Shown here piece after piece: positions 31,271 to 64,000 of a DNA stretch of 64,000 nt. The notes beneath the pieces are model-generated. The model was given only the letters and a program-made list of their open reading frames with translations. It was not told the DNA's origin and did not search any database. How positions within the stretch are numbered: the stretch's first letter is position 1; each line of letters starts with the position of its first letter. Position numbers and translations under genes: made by a program. The DNA lies in the NCBI GenBank assembly GCA_965261165.1, contig OZ253445.1, positions 845,987 to 909,986 of the forward strand. The letters are read 5' to 3'. This DNA is from Gammaproteobacteria bacterium. Its GTDB lineage: Bacteria > Pseudomonadota > Gammaproteobacteria > Eutrophobiales > Eutrophobiaceae.

Positions 31271-34080
31271 ATGACTATTTCTCTTGATGCCTTGGCCTCC
31301 TCCAGCCTTTCTTTTAATTCCAGATTACTCTCTGCAATCTTCATGATATCTCCTCGGTTTAATCTCAATAATGCCGCCTTTTCCTTTATCTTTACTGTCG
31401 CAGTACGAACCTGATCACCCAACAAGGCCATTTCACCAAAAAAATCACCTTCTTTAAGTTCTGCAATCAATTCGCCAGCCTTAAATACAGAGACAACACC
31501 GTGAATAATGATAAACATAGAATTGCCACTTTCGCCTTCTGTCACAACAATATCTCCATGCCTAAATCCAACCAATATTGTCTGCTCAACAATCAGATCC
31601 AATACCTCATTCGATAGCCCGCGCAACAGGGGAACTAGGCCAACCAAATCCATTTGCATCTCCCTTCCTTCTTTAATATCAGTTAATCTACGTTTTAATT
31701 CAGTTCCCTCTCTAGCGAGTTGCATGACATCCCGTCTTGTTAATCGCAGCAGTGTTGATGGGTGTTTCGCTTTGACCGTTGCCATCCTGACTTGATCTCC
31801 CAATAAAGCCATCTCACCAAAAAAATCACCATCACTCAATACAGCAACCTCTTTATTGTCCTTATATACAGAGACAATACCATGGGCAATGATATAAAGT
31901 GCATTGCCACGTTCGCCTTCGCCGATAATGATATCGTCCGCTAAAAATGTCACCGGCTTTGCATGCCCTGAAAGTTGTCCCAGTACTTCTGTTGGTAAGC
32001 CATTCAGTAGGGGTACTGTGCCAATCAAATCACTGGCATCAAGCCTGGGTGCTGCATCCGTAATAGGAGGCAAGGCTGAGATCGCCTCATAAATTATCCT
32101 TTTAATTCGGGCAAGTGCCTTTGCGCCAATTTCACCATCATGGCGATCTTGTTCTGCATGCAAACGCGCTGCAGTCAGTGCAACTTGGGTAAATAAATTG
32201 GTTTCAAATCTCACATAAAAATCTGGAAAATCCTCAGCAATTTCCTGTAATCGAGAACGACGTCTTTGCAGACGTTCACGATATTTCCCAGCAATCCTCT
32301 CTCTTCCCACTTCGCCAACTTCAGGATGTGTATCAAGCATCTCCAGCACTGATGAACAAATTAATACTCCAGCAATATCACGCTGCATCCTATGCGCCAA
32401 ACGTGTATTTTGATAGCGTGATAATAACCATGCCGCCCAATCATGCTCCCTTATTCTTTTTAACAGGGCATTTTCCATCGCCGCAAATAGACCTGTTTTA
32501 CTGGCAAAATCAGATGACGTGCCTGGGGCTTCATTAGCAGCAATCTTTTCCCTGTCGCGTTGGATATTATTTCTGATATCCAGATAGGTGTAATGCTGTA
32601 TCAGGTTAATATCATGTAATTTCTTTAACTCATCGAACTCAGTCCTCAATGCACTAAAACGCAAATGCTTTATGCCCTGCCTCTTTTGAATATCAGGAAT
32701 ATCAGAGCTAAACATTTCATATATATTTTTATGAATAAGTTGCTCGGTACTTCGTGAAACAATCCCTGCCTTGTAAAATCTATCGATGAGTGCAGATGAT
32801 TCTTTGCCTGCATGTATGATTCCCTGTTTCAGTTCAGCCAATTCGTCGTTTGTTAATCTATCTATCCGCAATTTTTGTATCAGTGGCTTGATCGTCGGAG
32901 CATTAACCAACAGTGAAAACATTACAACACCCAATGTTAAATCCAGCAATAAATCCCGACCTGGAAGATATTCAGGAACTGATAAAACAATTGCGATTGC
33001 TAATCCGCCTTTAATGCCGCCCCACCACATAATGTGCCGTTCACCAAGACTGACATGCGGCAAGGAGAACCATTTAATGGTTAAGGGAATCATGGCATGT
33101 ATCGTTGCAGCACGAGACAGCAACACCAACGATATAGCAATACCGATCACATCCATTCTGGCGACAAGGCGCTCTGCGTCTACTGATAATCCAACCAGTA
33201 AAAATAATAGAGAATTACTAACCAGCGCAATCACTTCCCAGGTTTCCTTGACCGTATAAATTGCAGCCTGTGAAATACGCGGAACCCATAACATGCCCAT
33301 GGTAATAGCGGAAGCGACTACCGCCATTACGCCTGAAACATGCAACAAATGTTCGGCAACGATAAAGCATACATAAGCAACAACAATCGTCATAATCATG
33401 AATGCACTCGAGCTTGAGAAAAGTCTGTGCAAAAATTCGCTAAACACAAAACCAATCACGGCTCCTACCAAAGCACCCCCAATAAAGACTTCAAAGAAAT
33501 CCAGTACAGCACTGCCAGCATCTGCCCAAGTAAACGCTGCACCACTCAATGCAAATATAAGAATAATCTTGAAGACAACGATCGCGGTGGCATCATTTAG
33601 CAATGACTCGCCTTCAACAAGAATCCTCAGTCTTTCTGGCACACCCAGTTCCTTAAACAAGGAGATAACGGCAACAGGGTCAGTTGCTGAAATTAAAGCA
33701 CCAAATAACAGCGCCAATACCAAATCCACTTTTAGGAAAAACCAGAGGCCTATCCCAATGAAGGCCGTGGAAATAAGCAGTGCCGGGACAGCCAGAACCA
33801 AAACAGGTAACAAATCCTTAACTAGCTGTCTGGCATTTAAGTTAAATGCGGACTCAAATATCAAGGCAGGCAAAAATAAGAATAAAACGATATCTGGAGC
33901 TAGTTGAAAATCAAGTAACACATGCATGGACTCATGATTTCTAGCAAAAGAACCCAGCACAATTCCAATGATCACCAGAAAAACGGTATAGGGAATAGGT
34001 GTATTATGACAAATGCCAGATGCCAACATGGCGATCGTCAACAAGCCCATAATAATCAGGATGGCTTCTGATAAAGGCAT
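31267..34080 (-). CDS. CPA1-family Na+/H+ exchanger fused to two C-terminal cyclic-nucleotide-binding (CAP-family) domains
   Basis: 937 aa; N-terminal ~420-aa polytopic NhaP-type domain; two copies of cNMP-binding motifs (...FGEMALLGDQVRMATVKA... and ...FGEMALLGDQVRTATVKI...). Confidence 0.8.
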   Translation of the reverse strand: MPLSEAILIIMGLLTIAMLASGICHNTPIPYTVFLVIIGIVLGSFARNHESMHVLLDFQLAPDIVLFLFLPALIFESAFNLNARQLVKDLLPVLVLAVPALLISTAFIGIGLWFFLKVDLVLALLFGALISATDPVAVISLFKELGVPERLRILVEGESLLNDATAIVVFKIILIFALSGAAFTWADAGSAVLDFFEVFIGGALVGAVIGFVFSEFLHRLFSSSSAFMIMTIVVAYVCFIVAEHLLHVSGVMAVVASAITMGMLWVPRISQAAIYTVKETWEVIALVSNSLLFLLVGLSVDAERLVARMDVIGIAISLVLLSRAATIHAMIPLTIKWFSLPHVSLGERHIMWWGGIKGGLAIAIVLSVPEYLPGRDLLLDLTLGVVMFSLLVNAPTIKPLIQKLRIDRLTNDELAELKQGIIHAGKESSALIDRFYKAGIVSRSTEQLIHKNIYEMFSSDIPDIQKRQGIKHLRFSALRTEFDELKKLHDINLIQHYTYLDIRNNIQRDREKIAANEAPGTSSDFASKTGLFAAMENALLKRIREHDWAAWLLSRYQNTRLAHRMQRDIAGVLICSSVLEMLDTHPEVGEVGRERIAGKYRERLQRRRSRLQEIAEDFPDFYVRFETNLFTQVALTAARLHAEQDRHDGEIGAKALARIKRIIYEAISALPPITDAAPRLDASDLIGTVPLLNGLPTEVLGQLSGHAKPVTFLADDIIIGEGERGNALYIIAHGIVSVYKDNKEVAVLSDGDFFGEMALLGDQVRMATVKAKHPSTLLRLTRRDVMQLAREGTELKRRLTDIKEGREMQMDLVGLVPLLRGLSNEVLDLIVEQTILVGFRHGDIVVTEGESGNSMFIIIHGVVSVFKAGELIAELKEGDFFGEMALLGDQVRTATVKIKEKAALLRLNRGDIMKIAESNLELKERLEEAKASREIVI

Positions 34081-54596: not shown

Positions 54597-54857
54597 ATGC
54601 CACTTTGCTATCAGTGCCTCTATCCCGAGCAGAATATCGCCAGCGCGAGCTGCTCAAGGGAAGGTGTTGTCGCGCCGTTAGTCGGCATCATCGGCATCAT
54701 GCAAGCGATGGAAGCAATCAACATATTGCTCGGCGATGGACAGTTGCCTGGCATAGTGTGGCTATTTGACGGCACCAGCATGGCATGGCAGAAAATGAAA
54801 CTCCCTAAGAATCCTGCTTGCCGCGCTTGTGGTGATTCAACATTGACGGAAAATTGA
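54597..54857 (+). pseudogene. moeB: molybdopterin-synthase adenylyltransferase MoeB/ThiF-family, C-terminal ~85-aa fragment only
   Basis: ...CYQCLYPE...GVVAPLVGIIGIMQAMEAINILLG...PACRACG matches the MoeB C-terminal region including the CxxC pair; there is no N-terminal Rossmann part upstream. Confidence 0.6.
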
Positions 54858-54867
54858 CGGAAATTTA

Positions 54868-57800
54868 ATGAACAGCAAATTCTTTACCAACTGCCAGGAA
54901 AACACCTTATTCAACAAACTTGAAGGCATTTTTCAGCACAACCAAAGCATCAATAATTTTGATGTTCTGGTCGGTTATTTCCGCTCTTCAGGTTATTTCA
55001 AACTGCGACCATTGCTGGAAAATGTAGCCCACATCCGCATTCTGGTGGGTATCGATGTCGATAAAATAACCACACAAATGCACGCGGATGGATTAGCCTT
55101 ATTCAATGGAGACCGCGAAAAAACCATCAAAGACTGGCAGAAGAAATTCAGCACTGATGTTCAAGAAGCTAATTATGAACAACAAACCGAGCAGGGCATT
55201 GTGCAGTTTATTGCGGATATAAAAACCAAAAAAGTGCAAATCAAAGCACATCCGAGCCGCGCCATTCACGCCAAGATATATATTTTTCGCCCCGATGATT
55301 ACAACCCGCATAAAGGCGGCAGTGTGATTACCGGCTCGTCAAACCTCACCGATGCCGGACTCGGGACAGGAAGCAGTTCTAATTACGAATTTAATGTGTT
55401 GTTAAACGATTATAACGATATTCAATTCGCCACTGCCGAGTTCGAAAAATTATGGCAGGAAGGCATAGAAGTACTGCCACAAGTCGCCGAAGACAGCCTC
55501 AAAAAAACCTATTTAGCCGATAACATCACGCCCTATGAACTGTATTTGAAATGCCTGATTGAATATTTTGGTGCGGAAATTGAATTTGACCCGAACTCCA
55601 TTAAAGACTTGCCCGCTGACTTCAAACGCCTGTCCTATCAAATGGATGCGGTGAATGAAGGCTGGCAAATGCTAAAAAAACACAATGGGTTTTTTCTCGC
55701 CGATGTGGTGGGCCTGGGCAAAACCGTTATTGCTGTTTTAATTGCGCGTCAGTTTTATTACCACAATGGCTATCCTGATTATCGGTCTAAAATTTTATTG
55801 GTGATTCCACCAGCATTGAAACAAAACTGGGTCGATACCTTAAAAAGTTTTAGCATTGATGATGCTTTTAAGATTATTACCAACGGCAGTTTGCACAAGA
55901 TTAGCAACGCCAAAGACTATGACATGGTCATTGTCGATGAGGCACATAAATTTCGCAACGATAGCGCAGAAGCTTACGACCAATTACAACGCATTTGCAA
56001 AACCAAAACCGAACACGATAAGGGCAAGGGCGGCAGAGATAAAAAAGTGATGCTCATTTCCGCCACGCCGCTGAATAATCGCCCTGATGATTTATACAAC
56101 CAGATTTTATTGTTCCAAGACGGCAACAACTCAACGCTTGATTTCCCACTGGGCAGTTTCTTTAGCAAAGCAAAAAAAGAATATCAAGATATTTTGAAGC
56201 TGGCGGATAAACATCAAGCCGGGCAAAAAACAGCAGCACTGTATGAAAAAATCCGCGCAAGAGTCATTGCTCCGCTTATGGTGCGCCGAACCCGTACTGA
56301 TTTATTGGCAAATAAGCGTTACCAACAAGATTTGCTGGAACATGGCGTTGTGTTCCCCAAAACAACCCCGCCAAAACCCGTGTATTGTCAACTGGAGGCA
56401 GGATTAGAAAAATTATACGATAACACCGTCAAAAAAATAGATAACAAACATCGAAATAAAAGCGGCTTACTGCATACCCGCTACCGTGCCTTGCATTACC
56501 TAAAGCCTGAACTCAAACAACAATACACAAGAGCAGATTTTATTGCTGATCGCTTGGTCGGCATTATGAAAACACTATTGCTGAAAAGAATGGACAGCAG
56601 TTTTTATGCCTTTGGGCAAACCTTGGGGCGTTTTATCAGATCTTCTGAAGCTATGTTAAAGATGATTGACAACAATAAAATCATTATCGCGCCAAATCTT
56701 GATGTAAATAGTTATATATTGGACGGCAACGAAGACGAGTTAATGGAAGTAATTGCCACTGAAAGTCTGACCGACCCCAGCATTATTGTGTGTTGCCGTG
56801 ATGATTTTGAAGCTGGTTTTATTGATGGCATCAAACACGACTATGCCCTGTTAAAAACCATGAAATCGGACTGGGACAATATAACTGAAGAAATCGGCGA
56901 TCCAAAATTGCATGAGTTTTTAACCCAACTACCAAATTTTTTAGACAAACAAAACAATCCACAGCAGAAAATCGTGCTGTTTACCGAAAGCACCGACACC
57001 ATGCGCTATCTGACAGCGGAAATAGAACAAACCAAATACGGCGAGAAAACGCTCAGCGTCAATGCTCAAAACCGCAATCAACTCAAGCAAGCCATTGCAC
57101 AGGATTTTGATGCCAATATAGATGCCGCAGACAAGCTAAATAGCCATCAAATTCTCTTAACCACAGATGTATTAGCCGAGGGCGTGAATCTGCACCGAGC
57201 CAACACGGTGATCAATTATGATACGCCGTGGAATGCCACCAAACTGATGCAACGCATCGGCCGGGTCAACCGTATCGGACAAACCGCCAGCCATATCTTT
57301 GTCTATAACTTCTATCCAACCGCACAAATTGACGATGATATTGCGCTACGAAGAAGAGCACTGATTAAACTACAAGCCTTTCACTCGGCCCTAGGCGAAG
57401 ACTCACAAATTTATTCAACCGATGAAAAAGTCGATACATTCGGTATATTTGATGAAAATATCAAAGAAGAAGTGAATGAAACCATCCCGTTTTTAGAAGA
57501 AATACGGCAGTTCAGGAAAAATGACCCAGCCGCCTATAAACGCATCAAGGGGTTGCCGAGCAAGGTCAGAAATGCAGTAAAAAATACCGCCCATCAAGGC
57601 GGCGCCCTGGTTTTTGCGCGCACCGAAGGCAAGGGCAGCAGTCGGTTTTATGTGGTAAAACCTGAACTAGACAATGCCAGCAATGAAAATAACATTGCCC
57701 CTTTTATTAAAACCTACAGCTTTATTCAAACCGCCAAATTATTAAGATGCAGCCCCGACACCCAAGCGACAAAATTACCCGAACAACACCACAGCCAAGT

Positions 57801-58194
57801 AGTATCGGCATTAGATAAATTCAAGCAGGAAACAGCACAAGACATTGTCAATGAAAATCAAAATAAAACCTTATCCACGACAGAAAAAAAGGCGATTCGC
57901 TTTCTAAAAGCAATGTTAGCCCTCTCCGAAATCAATGCCGCCAATGACGCGGAACCAGACAAAATAAAGCTGGCAATCGAACAAATTAAACAGAAACGCT
58001 TTCAAAACCTAAGCAGAGACATCAACAAATTAAGTAAAAACACTAAGGAAATAAAGCCAATTGTGGTATTGGAAAGAACCTTGAACATCATTCAGAAATA
58101 TGACCTTAACCGCCATATAGAAGATAACCCAGAGCAAGCAAAAAAACCTAAAAACACCCAGCCAACCATCGTCATTTCGCAATCCTACACCTAA
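54868..58194 (+). CDS. phospholipase-D-family (single HKD) nuclease domain fused to an SNF2-family helicase with a long C-terminal extension
   Basis: 1108 aa. HKD motif HAKIYIFRPDD...GSSNLT at about 55267-55340. SNF2 motif I LADVVGLGKTVIA (55711-55725), DEAH box MVIVDEAHKF (55934-55948), motif VI QRIGRVNRIGQ. A ~280-aa C-terminal tail of unknown function. Confidence 0.85.
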   Translation: MNSKFFTNCQENTLFNKLEGIFQHNQSINNFDVLVGYFRSSGYFKLRPLLENVAHIRILVGIDVDKITTQMHADGLALFNGDREKTIKDWQKKFSTDVQEANYEQQTEQGIVQFIADIKTKKVQIKAHPSRAIHAKIYIFRPDDYNPHKGGSVITGSSNLTDAGLGTGSSSNYEFNVLLNDYNDIQFATAEFEKLWQEGIEVLPQVAEDSLKKTYLADNITPYELYLKCLIEYFGAEIEFDPNSIKDLPADFKRLSYQMDAVNEGWQMLKKHNGFFLADVVGLGKTVIAVLIARQFYYHNGYPDYRSKILLVIPPALKQNWVDTLKSFSIDDAFKIITNGSLHKISNAKDYDMVIVDEAHKFRNDSAEAYDQLQRICKTKTEHDKGKGGRDKKVMLISATPLNNRPDDLYNQILLFQDGNNSTLDFPLGSFFSKAKKEYQDILKLADKHQAGQKTAALYEKIRARVIAPLMVRRTRTDLLANKRYQQDLLEHGVVFPKTTPPKPVYCQLEAGLEKLYDNTVKKIDNKHRNKSGLLHTRYRALHYLKPELKQQYTRADFIADRLVGIMKTLLLKRMDSSFYAFGQTLGRFIRSSEAMLKMIDNNKIIIAPNLDVNSYILDGNEDELMEVIATESLTDPSIIVCCRDDFEAGFIDGIKHDYALLKTMKSDWDNITEEIGDPKLHEFLTQLPNFLDKQNNPQQKIVLFTESTDTMRYLTAEIEQTKYGEKTLSVNAQNRNQLKQAIAQDFDANIDAADKLNSHQILLTTDVLAEGVNLHRANTVINYDTPWNATKLMQRIGRVNRIGQTASHIFVYNFYPTAQIDDDIALRRRALIKLQAFHSALGEDSQIYSTDEKVDTFGIFDENIKEEVNETIPFLEEIRQFRKNDPAAYKRIKGLPSKVRNAVKNTAHQGGALVFARTEGKGSSRFYVVKPELDNASNENNIAPFIKTYSFIQTAKLLRCSPDTQATKLPEQHHSQVVSALDKFKQETAQDIVNENQNKTLSTTEKKAIRFLKAMLALSEINAANDAEPDKIKLAIEQIKQKRFQNLSRDINKLSKNTKEIKPIVVLERTLNIIQKYDLNRHIEDNPEQAKKPKNTQPTIVISQSYT

Positions 58195-58254
58195 GCCGTC
58201 ATCCCACTAATCCATATCTGTCACTCCCGCACCGCCCCGTCATTCCTGCGAAAG

Positions 58255-58403
58255 AGACTGTGCAAGAAACCCAACGTTCGTCATTCTTAACCCCCTAGCC
58301 CCCTTATCAGGGGGGAATTGAGTGGAAAGTCCCCCTGATAAGGGGGATTTAGGGGGTTGGGTTTTCCACCAGCGTAACCTAACGAGGTTTTTTACACAGT
58401 CTC
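58255..58403. mobile_element. 149-bp MITE-like element inserted in the loop of a REP-like hairpin, with a 5-bp target duplication
   Basis: The host hairpin gtcattcctgc[gaaag]caggaatccag is split. gaaag occurs at 58250-58254 and again at 58404-58408. The element's ends are imperfect inverted repeats, gagactgtgcaagaaacc versus gagactgtgtaaaaaacc (16 of 18 match); there is an internal palindrome cccccttatcagggggg / ccccctgataaggggg. Confidence 0.5.
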
Positions 58404-58550
58404 GAAAGCAGGAATCCAGTGAAACAACCAAACCGGCCAGGGTTTTCCACCATCAGTGCGGTTATTTTTCTTATTATTTCGCAACCATACACATAACATA
58501 GTACGATACACATCAAACACTAATCGTAACCCACTCAACCGGAGAGACCA

Positions 58551-58796
58551 ATGCTAAACAGCGCTCATAGAACCAATATTGTTTTAGATGAAAATGTCGT
58601 GCAAGAGGCATTAAAACTGAGCAACCTAAAAACCAGGCGCGCTTTGATAGATGCTGCCCTAAGAGAGTTTATCGTTAATCACAAACAAAACAACAGTTTA
58701 GAGGCGTTACGGGATTCATTTGGTGGCAAGAGTCCATTTTTTGAAGGGTATGATTACAAGACTTTGCGTATCAATCCGCATTTACCCGAAGACTGA
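58551..58796 (+). CDS. vapB: VapB-family (DUF2191-type) antitoxin
   Basis: 81 aa; NIVLDENVVQEALKL...RRALIDAALREFI is the DUF2191 antitoxin pattern; sits 6 nt upstream of a PIN toxin. Confidence 0.7.
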   Translation: MLNSAHRTNIVLDENVVQEALKLSNLKTRRALIDAALREFIVNHKQNNSLEALRDSFGGKSPFFEGYDYKTLRINPHLPED

Positions 58797-58802
58797 AGGC
58801 TA

Positions 58803-59216
58803 ATGTCTAAACAGTTAATATATTTAGCAGATACATCGGTGTGGATTGACTTTTTTAATTACAACACAACTGAAAAAATAGAACAATTATTCAAAACCAA
58901 TCAAATCGCATTAACACCGCTTGTCTATATGGAAGTTTTACAAGGTTCTAAAACTCAACAAATACTTGAAAAGATAGATAAAATTTTATTACAGCAAGTT
59001 TTTTATCACCTAAACGATAAACTTATTAGTTATAAGAACGCCGCACTAATTTACTCAAAATGCCGCAAAAAAGGCATTACCATTCGCTCATCCATTGATT
59101 ACCTGATTGCCCAATGTGCCATCGAGAATGAGGTTACCCTGCTCCACAACGATAAAGACTTTGTGCAAATGGCAGGGGTTATCCCAACCTTAAAACAACG
59201 GTATATCGGCGACTAA
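58803..59216 (+). CDS. vapC: PIN-domain toxin VapC
   Basis: 137 aa; N-terminal IYLADTSVWIDF... with the conserved acidic residues of the PIN fold; stop TAA overlaps the ATG of the next gene (TAATG). Confidence 0.8.
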   Translation: MSKQLIYLADTSVWIDFFNYNTTEKIEQLFKTNQIALTPLVYMEVLQGSKTQQILEKIDKILLQQVFYHLNDKLISYKNAALIYSKCRKKGITIRSSIDYLIAQCAIENEVTLLHNDKDFVQMAGVIPTLKQRYIGD

Positions 59217-62200
59217 TGAAACTATTAAACCAAGCCTATAACCAAGACAATTACCTTAATTTTCTGGCAGATCAATTCAACTTTGATAAAAACCTTGCAC
59301 CTATTGAGGTGGAAAGCAAAGAAGTCAACACTTTTACGCGGCTCGGCACCGTTACCAGCCAAGACGGCAAAAAATTACCCGTCTTTGAAATTCATATCAA
59401 GCCCAACACCCAATTAAGCAGAAACCGCGTACAGTTACGCAATCTGGTTGCCAAGCAAATTGGCAGCGAAGACGGTGCTTTAGCCGTTTATGTTGATGAG
59501 GAAAACAAACAATGGCGGTTTAGTTTTATTGCCATTGAATACCGTTTCACCAATGACGGCATTCAACAAGAGCAAACCGCCAGCAAACGCTTTACTTACC
59601 TGTTGGGCGAAAACACCCAAACCAGAACCGCCCAAGACCGCTTTAGCGCACTCAACAAGCAATCCACGCTACAAGACTTAAAAACCGCTTTTTCTGTTGA
59701 AGAGCTGAACAAGGAATTTTACGACAAACTGTATCGCTGGTATGAAAAAGCACAATGCGAAGTCGTATTCCCCAATGACGAACGCACCGACAACCACAGC
59801 CAAACCAGCCTGATTCGCCTGTTGACGCGGTTGTTATTCATCTGGTTTATCAAAGAGAAGGGGCTAATCAAGGCGGATTTATTTGATAAAGATAAATTAC
59901 AAACGCTGATTGATTACGAACAGCCCAGCAGTTTTTACAAGGCGATTCTGCAAAATCTGTTTTTTGCCACCCTCAACCGTCCGGTCACCGAGCGTAGTTT
60001 TCGCAACACAACCAACGGAGCGGCAAATAGCACCAATTATCTGGTCACCAATATCTACCGCTATCAAGATTATTTCATCGATTCGGATAAAGACAAAATC
60101 ATCGCGTTATTTGCCCAAACGCCCTTTCTCAACGGTGGCTTGTTTGAATGCTTAGACCGAGAGGCAAGCGATGCAGAAAAACAGGCTTACGATAATGATA
60201 AAACGATTCGCCCGATAGGCAGTGCCATTCGGATTGATGGCTTTTCCGATAGAGCTGATAATGAATTGGTTTTTCATAATCACCTATTTTTCAAGGACAC
60301 TATTTTCAATGACAATAAGCAGGACGATAAGCAGGATTTAGGCTTGATTGACTTGTTCAATCAATACCAGTTCACCGTTGAGGAAAGCACGCCGCTGGAT
60401 GTCGAAGTCGCCCTTGACCCCGAGCTATTGGGCAAGGTGTTTGAAAACCTGCTCGCCAGTTATAACCCCGAAACCGGACAACAGGCGCGCAAAGCCACCG
60501 GCAGTTTTTACACCCCGCGTGAAATTGTCAATTATATGGTCGATGAAAGCCTGAAACAGCATTTTCATCAGCACACCGACCTAACAGACGAGCAGATCAA
60601 TGCCCTGTTTGTTGACGCTGAATTCACCGAACAAGAAAACGCCCTCAATAAGCAACAAACAAAAGCCCTGATTTATGCCATAGATGGGCTAAAAATCCTT
60701 GACCCAGCGGTGGGCAGTGGTGCGTATCCGATGGGCATATTGCAACGGCTAGTGCTGATTTTAGAAAAAGTGGATGCAGAAAACACCCATTTCAAACAAC
60801 AGCAAATCGACAAGGCAGAACAAATCCCCGATGAAGCCAGTTGCGCCAGTGCCATAGCGGCGATAGAGCAGGTCTTTTCACAACAAAATCAGCATAACGC
60901 CTATGGCAAGAAATTAATGTTGATAGAAAACTGTATTTATGGCGTGGACATTCAACCCATCGCCATTCAAATCTGCAAGCTGCGCTTTTTTATCAGCCTG
61001 ACCATTGAACAAAGCCCTAACAAAAACAAAGCCGATAATTACGGCATCAAAGCCTTACCGAATTTAGAAACTAAGTTTATTGTTGCGAATAGTTTGCTGC
61101 CTTTGGGTGAGATGCCAAAACAAAAAGGGATATTTGATACTGGTATCGAAGAATTACAAACAAAATTAGCCCAAGTCAGGCACAAGCATTTTAGTGCCAA
61201 GACCTTAACCACCAAACGCAAATACCGCGATAAAGATAAAGACTTACGCGAGCAAATGCTGGAAGAATTAACCAAAAGCGGTGTCACTCCAGCCGTTGAA
61301 GCCAGCATGAAAAGAATCGTTCATTGGGATTTATACAATCAAAATGCAGTAGCCGATTGGTTTGATCCCAAATGGATGTTTGGCGTGGATAGTTTTGATA
61401 TTGTGATTGGTAACCCGCCGTATATCCGTCATGAATCCATTAAAGAGTTTAAGCCACAATTTGAGAAAAGTTTTTCTGTTTTTGTCGGCACTGCTGATAT
61501 TTATACCTATTTTTATGAAAAAGGCGTGCAGCTACTCAATGATAATGGACATTTATGCTACATCACCTCCAACAAATGGATGCGGGCAAAATATGGTGAA
61601 AAGTTGCGCGGCTTTTTCAAAGACAAAACCCAGCTCAAACAGATTATTGATTTTGAAGGGCAGCAGGTTTTTGAAAATGCCACAGTGGACACCAATATTC
61701 TGCTCTGCGGTAAAACTGCAAACACGCAAACCACACCCCCACTCTCGCCCAGTCATACCTATTCCCACCCTCGTCATTCCCGCCCCCACCCTCGTCATTC
61801 CCGCCCCCACCCCCGTCATTCCTGCCCCCACCCCCGTCATTCCTGCCCCCACCCCCGTCATTCCTGCGAAAGCAGGAATCCAGAGACTAACCCGCCAGCC
61901 AGTTTTCAATATCAAAAACAATTACCCGACGAGAACAACCCATTATTTAATATGGCGATTGGCGACTTATCAGCCAATGCTTACACCTTGCAGGCACCCG
62001 AAATTTTAGCCCTGAAAAAGAAAATAGAACAAATCGGCACACCATTAAAAGATTGGGATATTCGTATTAACTACGGCATAAAAACAGGTTTTAACGAGGC
62101 TTTTATTATCAACACCGCCAAACGAGACGAGTTAATAACGCAAGACCCGAAATCCACGGAAATCATCAAACCTATTTTACGCGGCAGGGACATCAAAGCA

Positions 62201-62839
62201 TATCAACACCATTGGGCGGGGTTGTGGTTGATTGCTACTTTTCCAGTATTAAAAATAAATATTGACCATTACCCCGCCATTAAAAACCATTTATTAAGTT
62301 TTTCAAAAGACCGATTAGAGCAGGCAGGAAAGAGGTTGCCAGATGGCAAAAAATCAAGGAAGAAAACAGGGAATAAATGGTTTGAAACTCAAGACCAAAT
62401 CGGCTATTACGAAGAATTTGCGAAGGAAAAGATTGTTTATAATGATATTACTAACAAGCTCTCTTTTTCATTGTCAGAGGCTGGTGAATATTTTAACAAT
62501 ACTGTCTATTTTGTTGCTAACAACAATGACATTCTTTTTCAGTTAGCGGTTCTTAACTCTAATTTAATCGACTGGTATTACAAACAAATATCAGTTCAAT
62601 TAGGGGCTGGAACTGTAAGAATGTTTAGTATTTATGTTGAACAACTCCCCATCCCGCAAATATCAAAACCAGCACAACAACCGTTTATAGCCTTAGTCGA
62701 TAAAATCCTCACCGCTAAACAACAGGGGCAAGACACCCGCACACTGGAAACCCAAATCGACCAGATGGTATATCAACTTTATGACCTCACCGACGATGAG
62801 ATTGGCATTATTGAGAATAGAAAATGTATGACAATATGA
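59216..62839 (+). CDS. MmeI/PglX-family gamma-class N6-adenine DNA methyltransferase with N-terminal nuclease-like and C-terminal target-recognition domains (Type IIL/IIG RM, BREX PglX or DISARM DrmMI-like)
   Basis: 1207 aa. The helical-domain motifs SLIRLLTRLLFIWFIKEKGLI, LFFATLN and PFLNGGLFE parallel those of MmeI. Motif X ...FYTPREIV; motif I DPAVGSGAYP; motif IV GNPPYI (61412-61423). The N-terminal YVD...IEYR aligns with the MmeI catalytic FVD...IEMK, with Lys replaced by Arg. Confidence 0.85.
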   Translation: MKLLNQAYNQDNYLNFLADQFNFDKNLAPIEVESKEVNTFTRLGTVTSQDGKKLPVFEIHIKPNTQLSRNRVQLRNLVAKQIGSEDGALAVYVDEENKQWRFSFIAIEYRFTNDGIQQEQTASKRFTYLLGENTQTRTAQDRFSALNKQSTLQDLKTAFSVEELNKEFYDKLYRWYEKAQCEVVFPNDERTDNHSQTSLIRLLTRLLFIWFIKEKGLIKADLFDKDKLQTLIDYEQPSSFYKAILQNLFFATLNRPVTERSFRNTTNGAANSTNYLVTNIYRYQDYFIDSDKDKIIALFAQTPFLNGGLFECLDREASDAEKQAYDNDKTIRPIGSAIRIDGFSDRADNELVFHNHLFFKDTIFNDNKQDDKQDLGLIDLFNQYQFTVEESTPLDVEVALDPELLGKVFENLLASYNPETGQQARKATGSFYTPREIVNYMVDESLKQHFHQHTDLTDEQINALFVDAEFTEQENALNKQQTKALIYAIDGLKILDPAVGSGAYPMGILQRLVLILEKVDAENTHFKQQQIDKAEQIPDEASCASAIAAIEQVFSQQNQHNAYGKKLMLIENCIYGVDIQPIAIQICKLRFFISLTIEQSPNKNKADNYGIKALPNLETKFIVANSLLPLGEMPKQKGIFDTGIEELQTKLAQVRHKHFSAKTLTTKRKYRDKDKDLREQMLEELTKSGVTPAVEASMKRIVHWDLYNQNAVADWFDPKWMFGVDSFDIVIGNPPYIRHESIKEFKPQFEKSFSVFVGTADIYTYFYEKGVQLLNDNGHLCYITSNKWMRAKYGEKLRGFFKDKTQLKQIIDFEGQQVFENATVDTNILLCGKTANTQTTPPLSPSHTYSHPRHSRPHPRHSRPHPRHSCPHPRHSCPHPRHSCESRNPETNPPASFQYQKQLPDENNPLFNMAIGDLSANAYTLQAPEILALKKKIEQIGTPLKDWDIRINYGIKTGFNEAFIINTAKRDELITQDPKSTEIIKPILRGRDIKAYQHHWAGLWLIATFPVLKINIDHYPAIKNHLLSFSKDRLEQAGKRLPDGKKSRKKTGNKWFETQDQIGYYEEFAKEKIVYNDITNKLSFSLSEAGEYFNNTVYFVANNNDILFQLAVLNSNLIDWYYKQISVQLGAGTVRMFSIYVEQLPIPQISKPAQQPFIALVDKILTAKQQGQDTRTLETQIDQMVYQLYDLTDDEIGIIENRKCMTI
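61764..61883. repeat. In-frame tandem array of ~5.5 copies of a 21-bp unit (cccaccc[t/c]cgtcattcc[c/t]gcc), ending in an intact REP-like hairpin gtcattcctgcgaaagcaggaatccag
   Basis: Units at 61764, 61785, 61806, 61827 and 61848; translated as HPRHSRPHPRHSRPHPRHSCPHPRHSCPHPRHSC inside the methyltransferase; the same hairpin sequence hosts the MITE at 58238-58419. Confidence 0.8.
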
Positions 62840-64000
62840 ATTTTGCGGAATTTTTTGCTGGTGCAAGTGGACTGGGTGAGGGGTTTATATCAGAAGGATT
62901 TAATCCAATAGCAACGGTAGAGATAAATAAACATTGCTGTGAAACATTAAAGACCCGCTCGGCATACCATTATTTAATGAACAATAATAATGCAGATACT
63001 TACAATGATTATCTTAAAGGAAAAATTAATAAAGATGCTTTATATGCGCAAATTCCAAAAGAGGTTTTAAGCCAAACGATACATCGGGAAATAAATAAAG
63101 CCAACATGCAAGGCATAAAGGACAGCATACGAGAGCAACTGGGTAGCCAGAAATTGGATGTCATATTAGGTGGACCTCCTTGTCAAGCCTATTCAATAAT
63201 TGGGAAATTTAAAAACGGCTATAAAGCAAATGACCATCGGCTTTATTTGTATAAATTTTACATCTCTTTTTTGAAAGAATTTCAACCAAAGATATTTTTA
63301 TTTGAAAATGTTTTAGGGCTTCTATCGCTGGATAAAGGAAATTTATTTAACACTATCAAACAAGAATTTGAAAAAGTAGGCTATAACATCGCCTATAAAG
63401 TATTGGATGCTAGTCAGTACGGCGTATTACAAAAAAGAAAAAGAGTTATATTGGTAGGTATAAAAAAAGGTTTAGGTATAGCGTTTAATTTTGATGAAAT
63501 GGTAGAAACAAAAAACCAATATTTTGTTAAAGATTTATTACAAGATTTGCCTCAATTGCAGGCTGGAAAACATTCAACGAAATACGCCGCTGAAACTAAT
63601 GATTATCTTAAAAAATTTAATATCAGAAACGAACAAGACAATATTCTAACGTGCCACCAATCAAGACCGCACAATGAAAGAGATTTAGAGATTTATAAAA
63701 TAGTTGTTCAGTCGTGGAATAAAGGCAAAGAAAGGTTGAAGTATAGTAAGTTGCCTAATGAATTAATAACCCATAAGAATATAAAATCTTTTTTAGATCG
63801 CTTTAAGGTGGTTGCTGACAATATGCCATATAGCCATACTATGGTGGCACACATTGCTAAAGACGGACATCATTACATCCACCCTGACATCAAGCAAAAT
63901 AGAAGTTTGACGGTAAGAGAGGCGGCAAGAATACAGTCTTTCCCAGATAATTATTTTTTTGAAGGACCAAGAACCGCACAATTTACGCAGGTTGGAAATG
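62836..64000 (+). CDS. DNA (cytosine-5)-methyltransferase (3' end outside window)
   Basis: Open frame from ATG 62836 (or 62824) to the window end; motif I FAGASGLGEGF; motif IV GGPPCQAYS (about 63169-63189); motif VI LFENV (63301-63312); ...QFTQVGN near the end; its start overlaps the stop of the upstream methyltransferase (ATGA). Confidence 0.85.
   Translation, partial: MNFAEFFAGASGLGEGFISEGFNPIATVEINKHCCETLKTRSAYHYLMNNNNADTYNDYLKGKINKDALYAQIPKEVLSQTIHREINKANMQGIKDSIREQLGSQKLDVILGGPPCQAYSIIGKFKNGYKANDHRLYLYKFYISFLKEFQPKIFLFENVLGLLSLDKGNLFNTIKQEFEKVGYNIAYKVLDASQYGVLQKRKRVILVGIKKGLGIAFNFDEMVETKNQYFVKDLLQDLPQLQAGKHSTKYAAETNDYLKKFNIRNEQDNILTCHQSRPHNERDLEIYKIVVQSWNKGKERLKYSKLPNELITHKNIKSFLDRFKVVADNMPYSHTMVAHIAKDGHHYIHPDIKQNRSLTVREAARIQSFPDNYFFEGPRTAQFTQVGN

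Follow-up and report, generated by a model that had tools for sequence, protein, structure and literature searches.

A candidate two-gene, ATP-dependent restriction-modification-like system pairing an Eco57I/TaqI_C-type adenine methyltransferase with a PLD-SNF2 helicase-nuclease

The locus considered here raises the question of which protein cuts DNA when a large DNA methyltransferase carries a nuclease motif that seems to have decayed. It lies on contig OZ253445.1 (assembly GCA_965261165.1) of a gammaproteobacterium of the family Eutrophobiaceae, of which positions 845,987 to 909,986 of the forward strand were analysed; this stretch of 64,000 nucleotides is referred to as the window, and its own numbering is used throughout. 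The gene in question (59216..62839, + strand), recognised from the list of open reading frames (ORFs), Pfam and PADLOC, encodes a protein of 1207 aa, hereafter the methylase, which an earlier sequence-only reading had described as an MmeI/PglX-family methyltransferase with a degenerate nuclease motif, translationally coupled to vapC. The answer that we consider probable, with a good margin left for doubt, is that the methylase provides modification and specificity in a two-gene, ATP-dependent restriction-modification-like system of Type ISP character, with the product of an upstream gene, a fusion of a PLD nuclease and a SNF2 helicase (PLD-SNF2), working as motor and cutter.

The ORF was borne out as one uninterrupted frame on the + strand, and its product can be assigned to the gamma-class N6-adenine methyltransferases of the Eco57I plus TaqI_C kind. 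Pfam returned Eco57I (PF07669; 4.7e-44, 150.9 bits vs a cut-off of 25.3), TaqI_C (PF12950; 4.5e-16, 59.6 bits vs a cut-off of 26.5) and N6_Mtase (1.1e-12), while the best PADLOC models were REBASE-derived Type IIG enzymes (REase_MTase_IIG, 5.4e-152). The catalytic core (60488..61735) was delimited by Pfam, by profile comparison with structures and by a motif check, and its motifs X (G429-SFYTP, aa 429-434), I (D496-PAVGSG, aa 496-503, nt 60701-60724) and IV (N733-PPY, aa 733-736, nt 61412-61423) are all intact and succeed one another in the order of the gamma class. It is followed by a target-recognition domain (TRD) of the TaqI_C type with a C-terminal helix (61913..62836), recognised by Pfam TaqI_C at aa 985-1146 and by matches to BseCI and CamA. 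When a family profile built from 49 diverse full-length homologues was compared with solved structures, it matched CamA (7e-53) and BseCI (4e-46), followed by PglX/BrxX (about 1e-25), TaqI (1e-14), DrdV (5e-12) and MmeI (5.9e-10), in all cases over the methylase and recognition domains only and never within residues 1-400.

The Pfam, PADLOC, NCBIfam and structure-profile scores, together with the intact motifs, thus exclude the MmeI and PglX families. The helical domain, which had been said to align with MmeI, does not: the Pfam models MmeI_N, MmeI_hel, MmeI_TRD and MmeI_C were left unmatched, even at E<=10 on residues 1-430. The methyltransferase motifs had likewise been aligned with MmeI, and here the motifs themselves stand but the affiliation does not, since MmeI_Mtase reached 16.7 bits vs a cut-off of 27; the MmeI structure was reached by the family profile in the methylase/TRD part only, more weakly than CamA, BseCI, PglX and TaqI. 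No Pfam family scored above threshold in residues 1-430, DUF7814 on the helical domain (3.7e-4) staying below its cut-off. This domain (aa about 140-420, 59633..60475) was delimited by the alignment of homologues, in which the segments QNLFFATLN, PFLNGGLFE and LDPELLGKVFENLL are highly conserved. PglX membership fails on NCBIfam scores (97.5 bits vs 500 for BREX-1, 62.7 vs 400 for BREX-2 and 49.1 vs 900 for BREX-6), and that of DrmMI on PADLOC matches restricted to aa 423-593, one of 108 bits covering aa 423-589; the PADLOC models of PglX are likewise confined to parts of the methylase core. Size had also been held to favour PglX/DrmMI; the length without the repeat insert, estimated at about 1160 aa, proved to be ~1151 aa, but the argument is weak, ~1100-1250 aa being the usual length among homologues of this methylase. 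At least 8000 such homologues were found in the protein search, and the N-terminal 400 aa are common to 2978 cluster representatives. Many align over the first 69% of the methylase only, the recognition domain being hypervariable among relatives. In its own right, it may be recorded that a single 1.92-Mb genome (locus L028, OZ253494.1; proteins P0025, P0030, P0051 and P0079) holds four paralogues of the methylase, two of them in tandem beside a truncated helicase, and that most of the four diverge in the last 30% of the protein, that is, in the TRD.

The N-terminal α/β domain (aa 1-135, 59216..59620), delimited by AlphaFold2 and alignments, is where the nuclease question has to be asked. The AlphaFold2 model of these 135 residues (pLDDT 87.8, pTM 0.84) presents a helix, three strands, a helix, a long β-hairpin (87-94 plus 99-112) and two further strands; the domain is read as a relic PD-(D/E)XK-like fold and a putative coupling module. 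Foldseek returned no significant match for this model in the PDB. The D...E-Y-R motif pointed out earlier is indeed present (59471..59545, placed by alignments anchored on a WRxS segment), with D86 at the start of strand 87-94 and E108-Y109-R110 on the partner strand 99-112, and in the model its geometry corresponds to that of a PD-(D/E)XK site. Another candidate for the relic motif, D50...E58-x-H60, was rejected, as the model puts both acids on one strand and its preceding turn and not across the hairpin.

How far this motif has decayed was assessed by a census of 83 family representatives (clusters at <=50% identity), anchored on the near-invariant W100-R101-x-S103 because the variable hairpin is misaligned in a column-wise count from MAFFT. 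The position of E108 is acidic in 59 of the 83, and 31 carry a D-(G/A)-A-L motif further upstream; at the third triad position, K and R are each found in 12 representatives, T in nine and E in seven, and five (6%) possess the full triad with Lys. Among 121 close homologues, position 110 is K in 34, R in 30, S in 19, E in 14 and H in 6. The best-conserved residues of the domain lie outside the triad and are mostly basic, R71, R101, K124 and R125 being kept at 95-98%, along with W100, S103, T127 and G131. An intact ExK in a shifted register, by which the methylase would have been a standard Type IIL enzyme, was looked for in the methylase and its relatives and none was conserved: E33-S-K35 and E96-N-K98 occupy positions that vary even among close relatives, the latter within the hairpin turn, and the Type IIL reading is therefore not rescued. 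The position in the hairpin and the family census confirm the degenerate motif in which Arg replaces Lys, and both point to a genuine relic nuclease site under relaxed constraint in the clade of the methylase. Given the decay of the triad across the family and the K/R/S/E/H variation at its third position, the methylase is probably devoid of a working nuclease, so that the modification-only role suggested earlier can be kept in the form of modification and specificity, most likely, rather than cutting.

The decisive context, overlooked by the sequence-only reading, appears to be the gene that would supply the missing nuclease. PLD-SNF2 (1108 aa, 54868..58194, + strand) was identified by Pfam, PADLOC and a motif check: Pfam assigned PLDc_2 (aa 31-196), SNF2-rel_dom and Helicase_C, and PADLOC returned the 'HKD+Snf2' model C3a139 (9e-54) and DrmD (3.7e-36). 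Its motifs are intact, including GLGKT (282-286), DEAH (357-360), motif VI (QRIGRVNR, 795-802) and the HxK of its single HKD motif (H134-A-K136, 55267..55275, followed by GSSNLT), whose catalytic H and K recur in every one of the 52 partner proteins aligned.

The association of the two genes is not peculiar to the window. A scan of one genome per species yielded 80 loci from many phyla, to which four earlier loci were added, and the count was restricted to the 69 loci with at least 4.5 kb of upstream sequence. Of these, 58 (84%) have a SNF2 homologue upstream, encoded on the same strand and in most cases directly adjacent to the methylase ORF or overlapping it; of the 62 helicase-linked loci scored, 58 showed a PLD domain. 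In relatives 77% and 88% identical, the PLD-SNF2 gene ends 8-10 bp before the methylase and vapBC is absent; in the window, vapBC and a repeat-filled spacer alone separate the two genes. The pair is also present on a Parabacteroides plasmid, annotated there as 'SNF2-related protein' and 'N-6 DNA methylase'. Moreover, the type of N-terminal domain appears to track the helicase clade, as expected of a docking module, because the identity of the helicase differs by N-domain type while that of the methylase core does not: methylase cores are equally close to the query whether they bear the matching N-domain or a different one of ~200 aa (median 42.8% in both cases), whereas the partner SNF2 identity is 43% where the N-domain matches (n=14) and 26% where it does not (n=48). 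A variation on the arrangement was seen in the Lactococcus cremoris plasmid pJM1F (L086), where a stand-alone TaqI_C gene in inverted orientation and an invertase of the Mpi family come after a related helicase (1233 aa) and methylase (1106 aa), in what looks like a specificity-switching shufflon.

In the proposed model, the methylase would recognise a short asymmetric site and methylate one adenine, thereby protecting host DNA. At unmodified sites it would recruit or activate PLD-SNF2 through its N-terminal domain, and PLD-SNF2 would translocate on DNA with ATP before cleaving it. The PLD active site would be formed by two converging or dimerised complexes, since each chain has one HKD motif and two chains must meet; cleavage on dimerisation or collision is thus suggested, as in Type ISP and Type I enzymes (PMC3874165). 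The whole would amount to a Type ISP enzyme divided between two chains, in which a PLD nuclease takes the place of the Mrr nuclease. A more far-reaching version of this proposal, to which we give slightly less than an even chance, holds that the pair constitutes an uncharacterised class of its own among ATP-dependent restriction systems, that the former PD-(D/E)XK domain has been repurposed as a partner-specific coupling or activation module, and that the junction between the genes is a docking site for accessory defence and toxin-antitoxin cargo.

Precedents for such a division of labour are found in the literature. Morgan et al. 2009 (PMC2731913) described MmeI homologues without PD-ExK that are flanked by helicase genes, two of them without endonuclease activity, and proposed the same separation between specificity and protection on the one hand and cutting partners on the other. 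In the list of Milman et al. 2023 (PMC9881135), a Cj0031-like Type II restriction-modification gene is immediately preceded by a PLD+SNF coding sequence. The arrangement of PLD-SNF2 and methylase is widespread, and the literature has noted it in passing without characterising it.

Several points weigh against the two-gene proposal. A search of the literature returned no experimental data for any member of the two-gene system, and physical contact between the methylase and PLD-SNF2 is suggested by linkage and co-variation. The helicase is absent in about 16% of the loci, and the close relatives L001 and L088 are decayed, with insertion sequence (IS) insertions and loss of the helicase. Some Bacteroidales members keep the textbook FDAAL...WRLS-FISD(I/L)K, that is, a complete D...D-(I/L)-K, and members with an intact D...DxK still have a PLD-SNF2 partner; in some lineages the N-domain may thus be catalytic, and even the Arg variant of the methylase might retain activity. 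From published work, transformation of Bacillus subtilis was not restricted by its analogous set, DnmA/YeeA with YeeB/YeeC (PMC7261158), and Cj0031, a solitary Eco57I+TaqI_C protein, lowers phage plating 5-1000-fold (PMC4889913), so that proteins of this architecture may restrict on their own.

The last two observations lead to the strongest competitors of the two-gene proposal. One of them, which we regard as unlikely though worth keeping in mind, is that the methylase is an orphan or decaying epigenetic enzyme that still methylates DNA while the pair no longer restricts in the source lineage, as with DnmA, whose DnmA/YeeB/YeeC set shows no restriction (PMC7261158). Signs of decay are at hand in L001, where the helicase is missing and an IS lies upstream, in L088, where the methylase is split by IS66, and in the window itself, with a mobile-element insertion inside the ORF, another in the spacer, and vapBC separating the helicase and methylase genes. 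Against this, all catalytic motifs of both proteins are intact in the window and both ORFs are full length, the insert has been kept in frame in five clusters 73-96% identical, and the TRD diversifies as expected of an active specificity determinant. A further step down in probability stands the view that the methylase is a self-contained Type IIG/IIL enzyme cutting at a fixed distance, its N-domain being a working non-canonical nuclease (through D86/E108/R110 or another register) and the helicase an independent neighbour. The PADLOC preference for Type IIG models already given, a motif placed where a PD-(D/E)XK site would be and intact in some relatives, the phage restriction by Cj0031 with the same architecture (PMC4889913) and the homologues that stand alone (L009, L044) all speak for it. 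It is however difficult to reconcile with a third catalytic position that wanders among K, R, S, E and H in close homologues and a Lys triad in 6% of representatives, or with a same-strand SNF2 linkage of 84% to partners in which the PLD HxK is invariant; besides, no solved Type IIG/IIL nuclease domain was matched, by sequence or by Foldseek.

The possibility that the methylase marks self DNA for a larger multi-protein exclusion system, as the PglX of BREX or the DrmMI of DISARM, had been raised by the sequence-only reading and is now the most improbable of all, with very little left to sustain it. The weak PglX and DrmMI matches, the partial match of the upstream protein to DrmD and that of the adjacent C5-methylase to DrmMII (1.5e-149) are what recommends it, along with the fact that the window stops at 64000 and genes further downstream lie outside it. 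The PglX scores are nonetheless far below their cut-offs and the DrmMI models cover aa 423-593 only, while PglZ, BrxC, BrxL, DrmA and DrmB are absent from the 38-64 kb part of the window and from loci L002, L004 and L085. In L088, which is 92-94% identical, the C5-methylase gene is followed by a GHKL ATPase and a 249-aa protein and not by DrmA/B. Membership of the BREX-related 'BR' systems was also considered and rejected, as their methylases are of the DUF1156/PglXI type (PMC12839542).

The genes that now separate the pair in the window are later arrivals. The vapB antitoxin gene (81 aa, 58551..58796, +; Pfam VapB_antitoxin 1.3e-13) and the vapC PIN toxin gene (137 aa, 58803..59216, +; Pfam PIN 6.6e-11) are a lineage-specific insertion between the helicase and methylase genes: vapB is absent from L002 and L004, and truncated vapC remnants occupy the same junction in L001 and L088. 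The translational coupling to vapC that had been proposed is in part upheld. The vapC stop and the methylase ATG do share one base (TAATG), and this real overlap would permit co-translation, although it is not conserved across the system. Upstream of vapB, a repeat-filled spacer of 356 bp (58195..58550), resolved by sequence inspection and comparison with relatives, contains a REP (repetitive extragenic palindromic)-like hairpin (58235-58419) split by a 148-bp miniature inverted-repeat transposable element (MITE; 58255-58402). The ends of this MITE are the terminal inverted repeats AGACTGTGCAAGAAACC / GGTTTTTTACACAGTCT, with GAAAG duplicated, and in L088 the vapC remnant is interrupted by MITEs that have these ends. 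A scan for promoters and terminators gave counts at chance level.

In other relatives the same junction holds DUF1016/YhcG-like, AlbA_2-like, KilA-N/Bro-like and IS200-like genes, as well as toxin-antitoxin pairs (vapBC in L082, higBA in L022, hicB in L071); these were recognised by reading the translations and not by domain search. Genes intervene between helicase and methylase in L010, L011, L021, L022, L024, L042, L048, L060, L062, L064, L066, L070, L071, L072 and L082, which marks the junction as a probable hotspot for the insertion of accessory cargo. Genes embedded in Type I operons offer a known parallel. On the other side of PLD-SNF2, the upstream sequence holds housekeeping genes and a ThiF fragment, an ORF of 86 aa (54597-54857) that corresponds to the C-terminal third of ThiF/MoeB only (8.7e-13) and stops 10 bp short of the PLD-SNF2 gene. 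This ThiF/MoeB-like ORF is probably a remnant marking the edge of the inserted defence genes.

The methylase gene itself has received an insertion in the linker between the catalytic domain and the TRD. By comparison with insert-free relatives, it consists of an in-frame REP-like element of 181 bp (61729..61909, +), in place of 13 bp in L002, as the repeat insert noted earlier had led one to expect, and it comprises five copies of a 21-bp tandem repeat (61764-61867) and the hairpin GTCATTCCTGCGAAAGCAGGAATC (61857-61880). It adds ~56 Pro/His/Arg/Ser-rich residues. The encoded heptad is present in five copies in the query, P0001 and P0002, in four in P0003 and in three in P0006; the insert is missing from P0004, P0012 and P0014. 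With three to five repeat copies, it has been kept in frame in five protein clusters whose identity to the query is 73-96%. Related genomes contain scattered copies of the element, and in the window another copy, with the same hairpin, lies in the vapB-proximal spacer (58235-58419). The in-frame palindromic elements of Rickettsia are a comparable case. Repeats of another kind follow the methylase in L001 (14900-20300), where the final ~90 nt of the methylase gene recur in eight copies, the REP hairpin coming after most of these, with seven GIY-YIG ORFs of 78-101 aa interspersed in a cassette-like tandem array; two such copies occur in L004. Elsewhere in the window, a direct repeat of 164 nt (31391-31554 and 31772-31935) has its copies 381 nt apart at 71% identity.

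Downstream, the stop of the methylase overlaps the start of a C5-cytosine methyltransferase gene, as had been stated (TGA/ATG within ATGA, 62836-62839). Of this protein of about 410 aa, the first 388 are encoded in the window (62836..64000, +; TIGR00675 dcm 1.5e-55, PADLOC DrmMII as given above). No copy of this gene follows the methylase in L001, L002 or L004. In L088 (10001-14087; 92% identical) and in L089 (8001-12148; 68% identical), its homologues are succeeded by a double-GHKL ATPase of ~700 aa, with HATPase_c_3 and HATPase_c domains, and by a protein of ~250 aa with a weak HEPN_Swt1 match. Because of this absence and of these partners, the C5-methylase is best regarded as the first gene of a separate module stacked beside the conserved helicase-methylase pair and outside it. 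The three-gene module probably continues just beyond the window end at 64000. Iyer et al. 2008 described MORC/MutL-like ATPase restriction systems that it resembles.

Relatives of the methylase are routinely annotated "Type IIG restriction enzyme" or "N-6 DNA methylase", and the present comparison suggests that many of them are instead specificity subunits of a helicase-nuclease system distributed across many phyla. Should this be true, catalogues of restriction systems miscount these proteins, and a restriction mechanism would be added in which a PLD cutter mounted on a SNF2 motor is directed by a methylase likely marking one strand. The family would also offer a clear case of nuclease domain decay after another nuclease took over, as well as a step between fused and split restriction systems. 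The practical value is modest, with the hypervariable TRDs as a possible source of new methylation specificities.

Among known systems, the Type-2 BREX-related (BR) systems share with the pair an effector in which an HKD nuclease precedes a Swi2/Snf2 helicase in one fused chain, together with an adenine methylase (PMC12839542). They differ in having a DUF499 ATPase and DUF3780, neither of which is present here, and in a DUF1156/PglXI methylase where the window has the Eco57I/TaqI_C type. Class 1 DISARM likewise encodes together a SNF2 helicase (DrmD), a PLD nuclease and a large N6-adenine methylase, and the partial HMM (hidden Markov model) similarity to DrmD and DrmMI reflects this likeness. 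However, DrmA and DrmB were not found at the locus or in relatives, any more than PglZ and BrxC, the PLD domain is fused to SNF2 here and is the separate DrmC there, and PLD-SNF2 scores 154.7 bits vs a DrmD cut-off of 610.

The methylase shares its layout and size with Cj0031, a phase-variable Type IIG enzyme of Campylobacter jejuni with Eco57I and TaqI_C domains and 1243 aa, the likeness being drawn from its published description. Cj0031 methylates one strand of CCYGA (PMC4889913), and the PLD-SNF-linked methylases were classed as Cj0031 homologues by Milman et al. 2023 (PMC9881135). Yet Cj0031 is described as solitary and as restricting phage alone (PMC4889913), whereas the methylase of the window is linked to a helicase and carries Arg in place of the Lys. 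In the MmeI homologues without PD-ExK, represented by YeeA/DnmA with YeeB and YeeC, a methylase/TRD protein without a working N-terminal nuclease is also conserved beside a helicase (PMC2731913). YeeA is a true MmeI relative (38% identity; PMC7261158), unlike the methylase here, which fails all MmeI Pfam models, and YeeABC comprises three genes with a separate nuclease gene, in contrast with the PLD domain fused to the helicase in the window.

A parallel is provided by the Type ISP enzymes LlaGI and LlaBIII, whose functional modules match in kind and order: nuclease, SF2 translocase, gamma-class N6-adenine methyltransferase and C-terminal TRD (PMC3874165). They also methylate an asymmetric site on one strand (PMC3874165), as is presumed for the methylase described here. 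The differences, as judged from the genes alone, lie in how these functions are distributed and what carries them. Those united in one chain in Type ISP enzymes are spread over two polypeptides in the proposed system, the Mrr-like PD-QxK nuclease has its counterpart in a PLD/HKD nuclease joined to a SNF2-type motor, and the methylase carries in addition a relic nuclease-like N-domain and a large helical domain.

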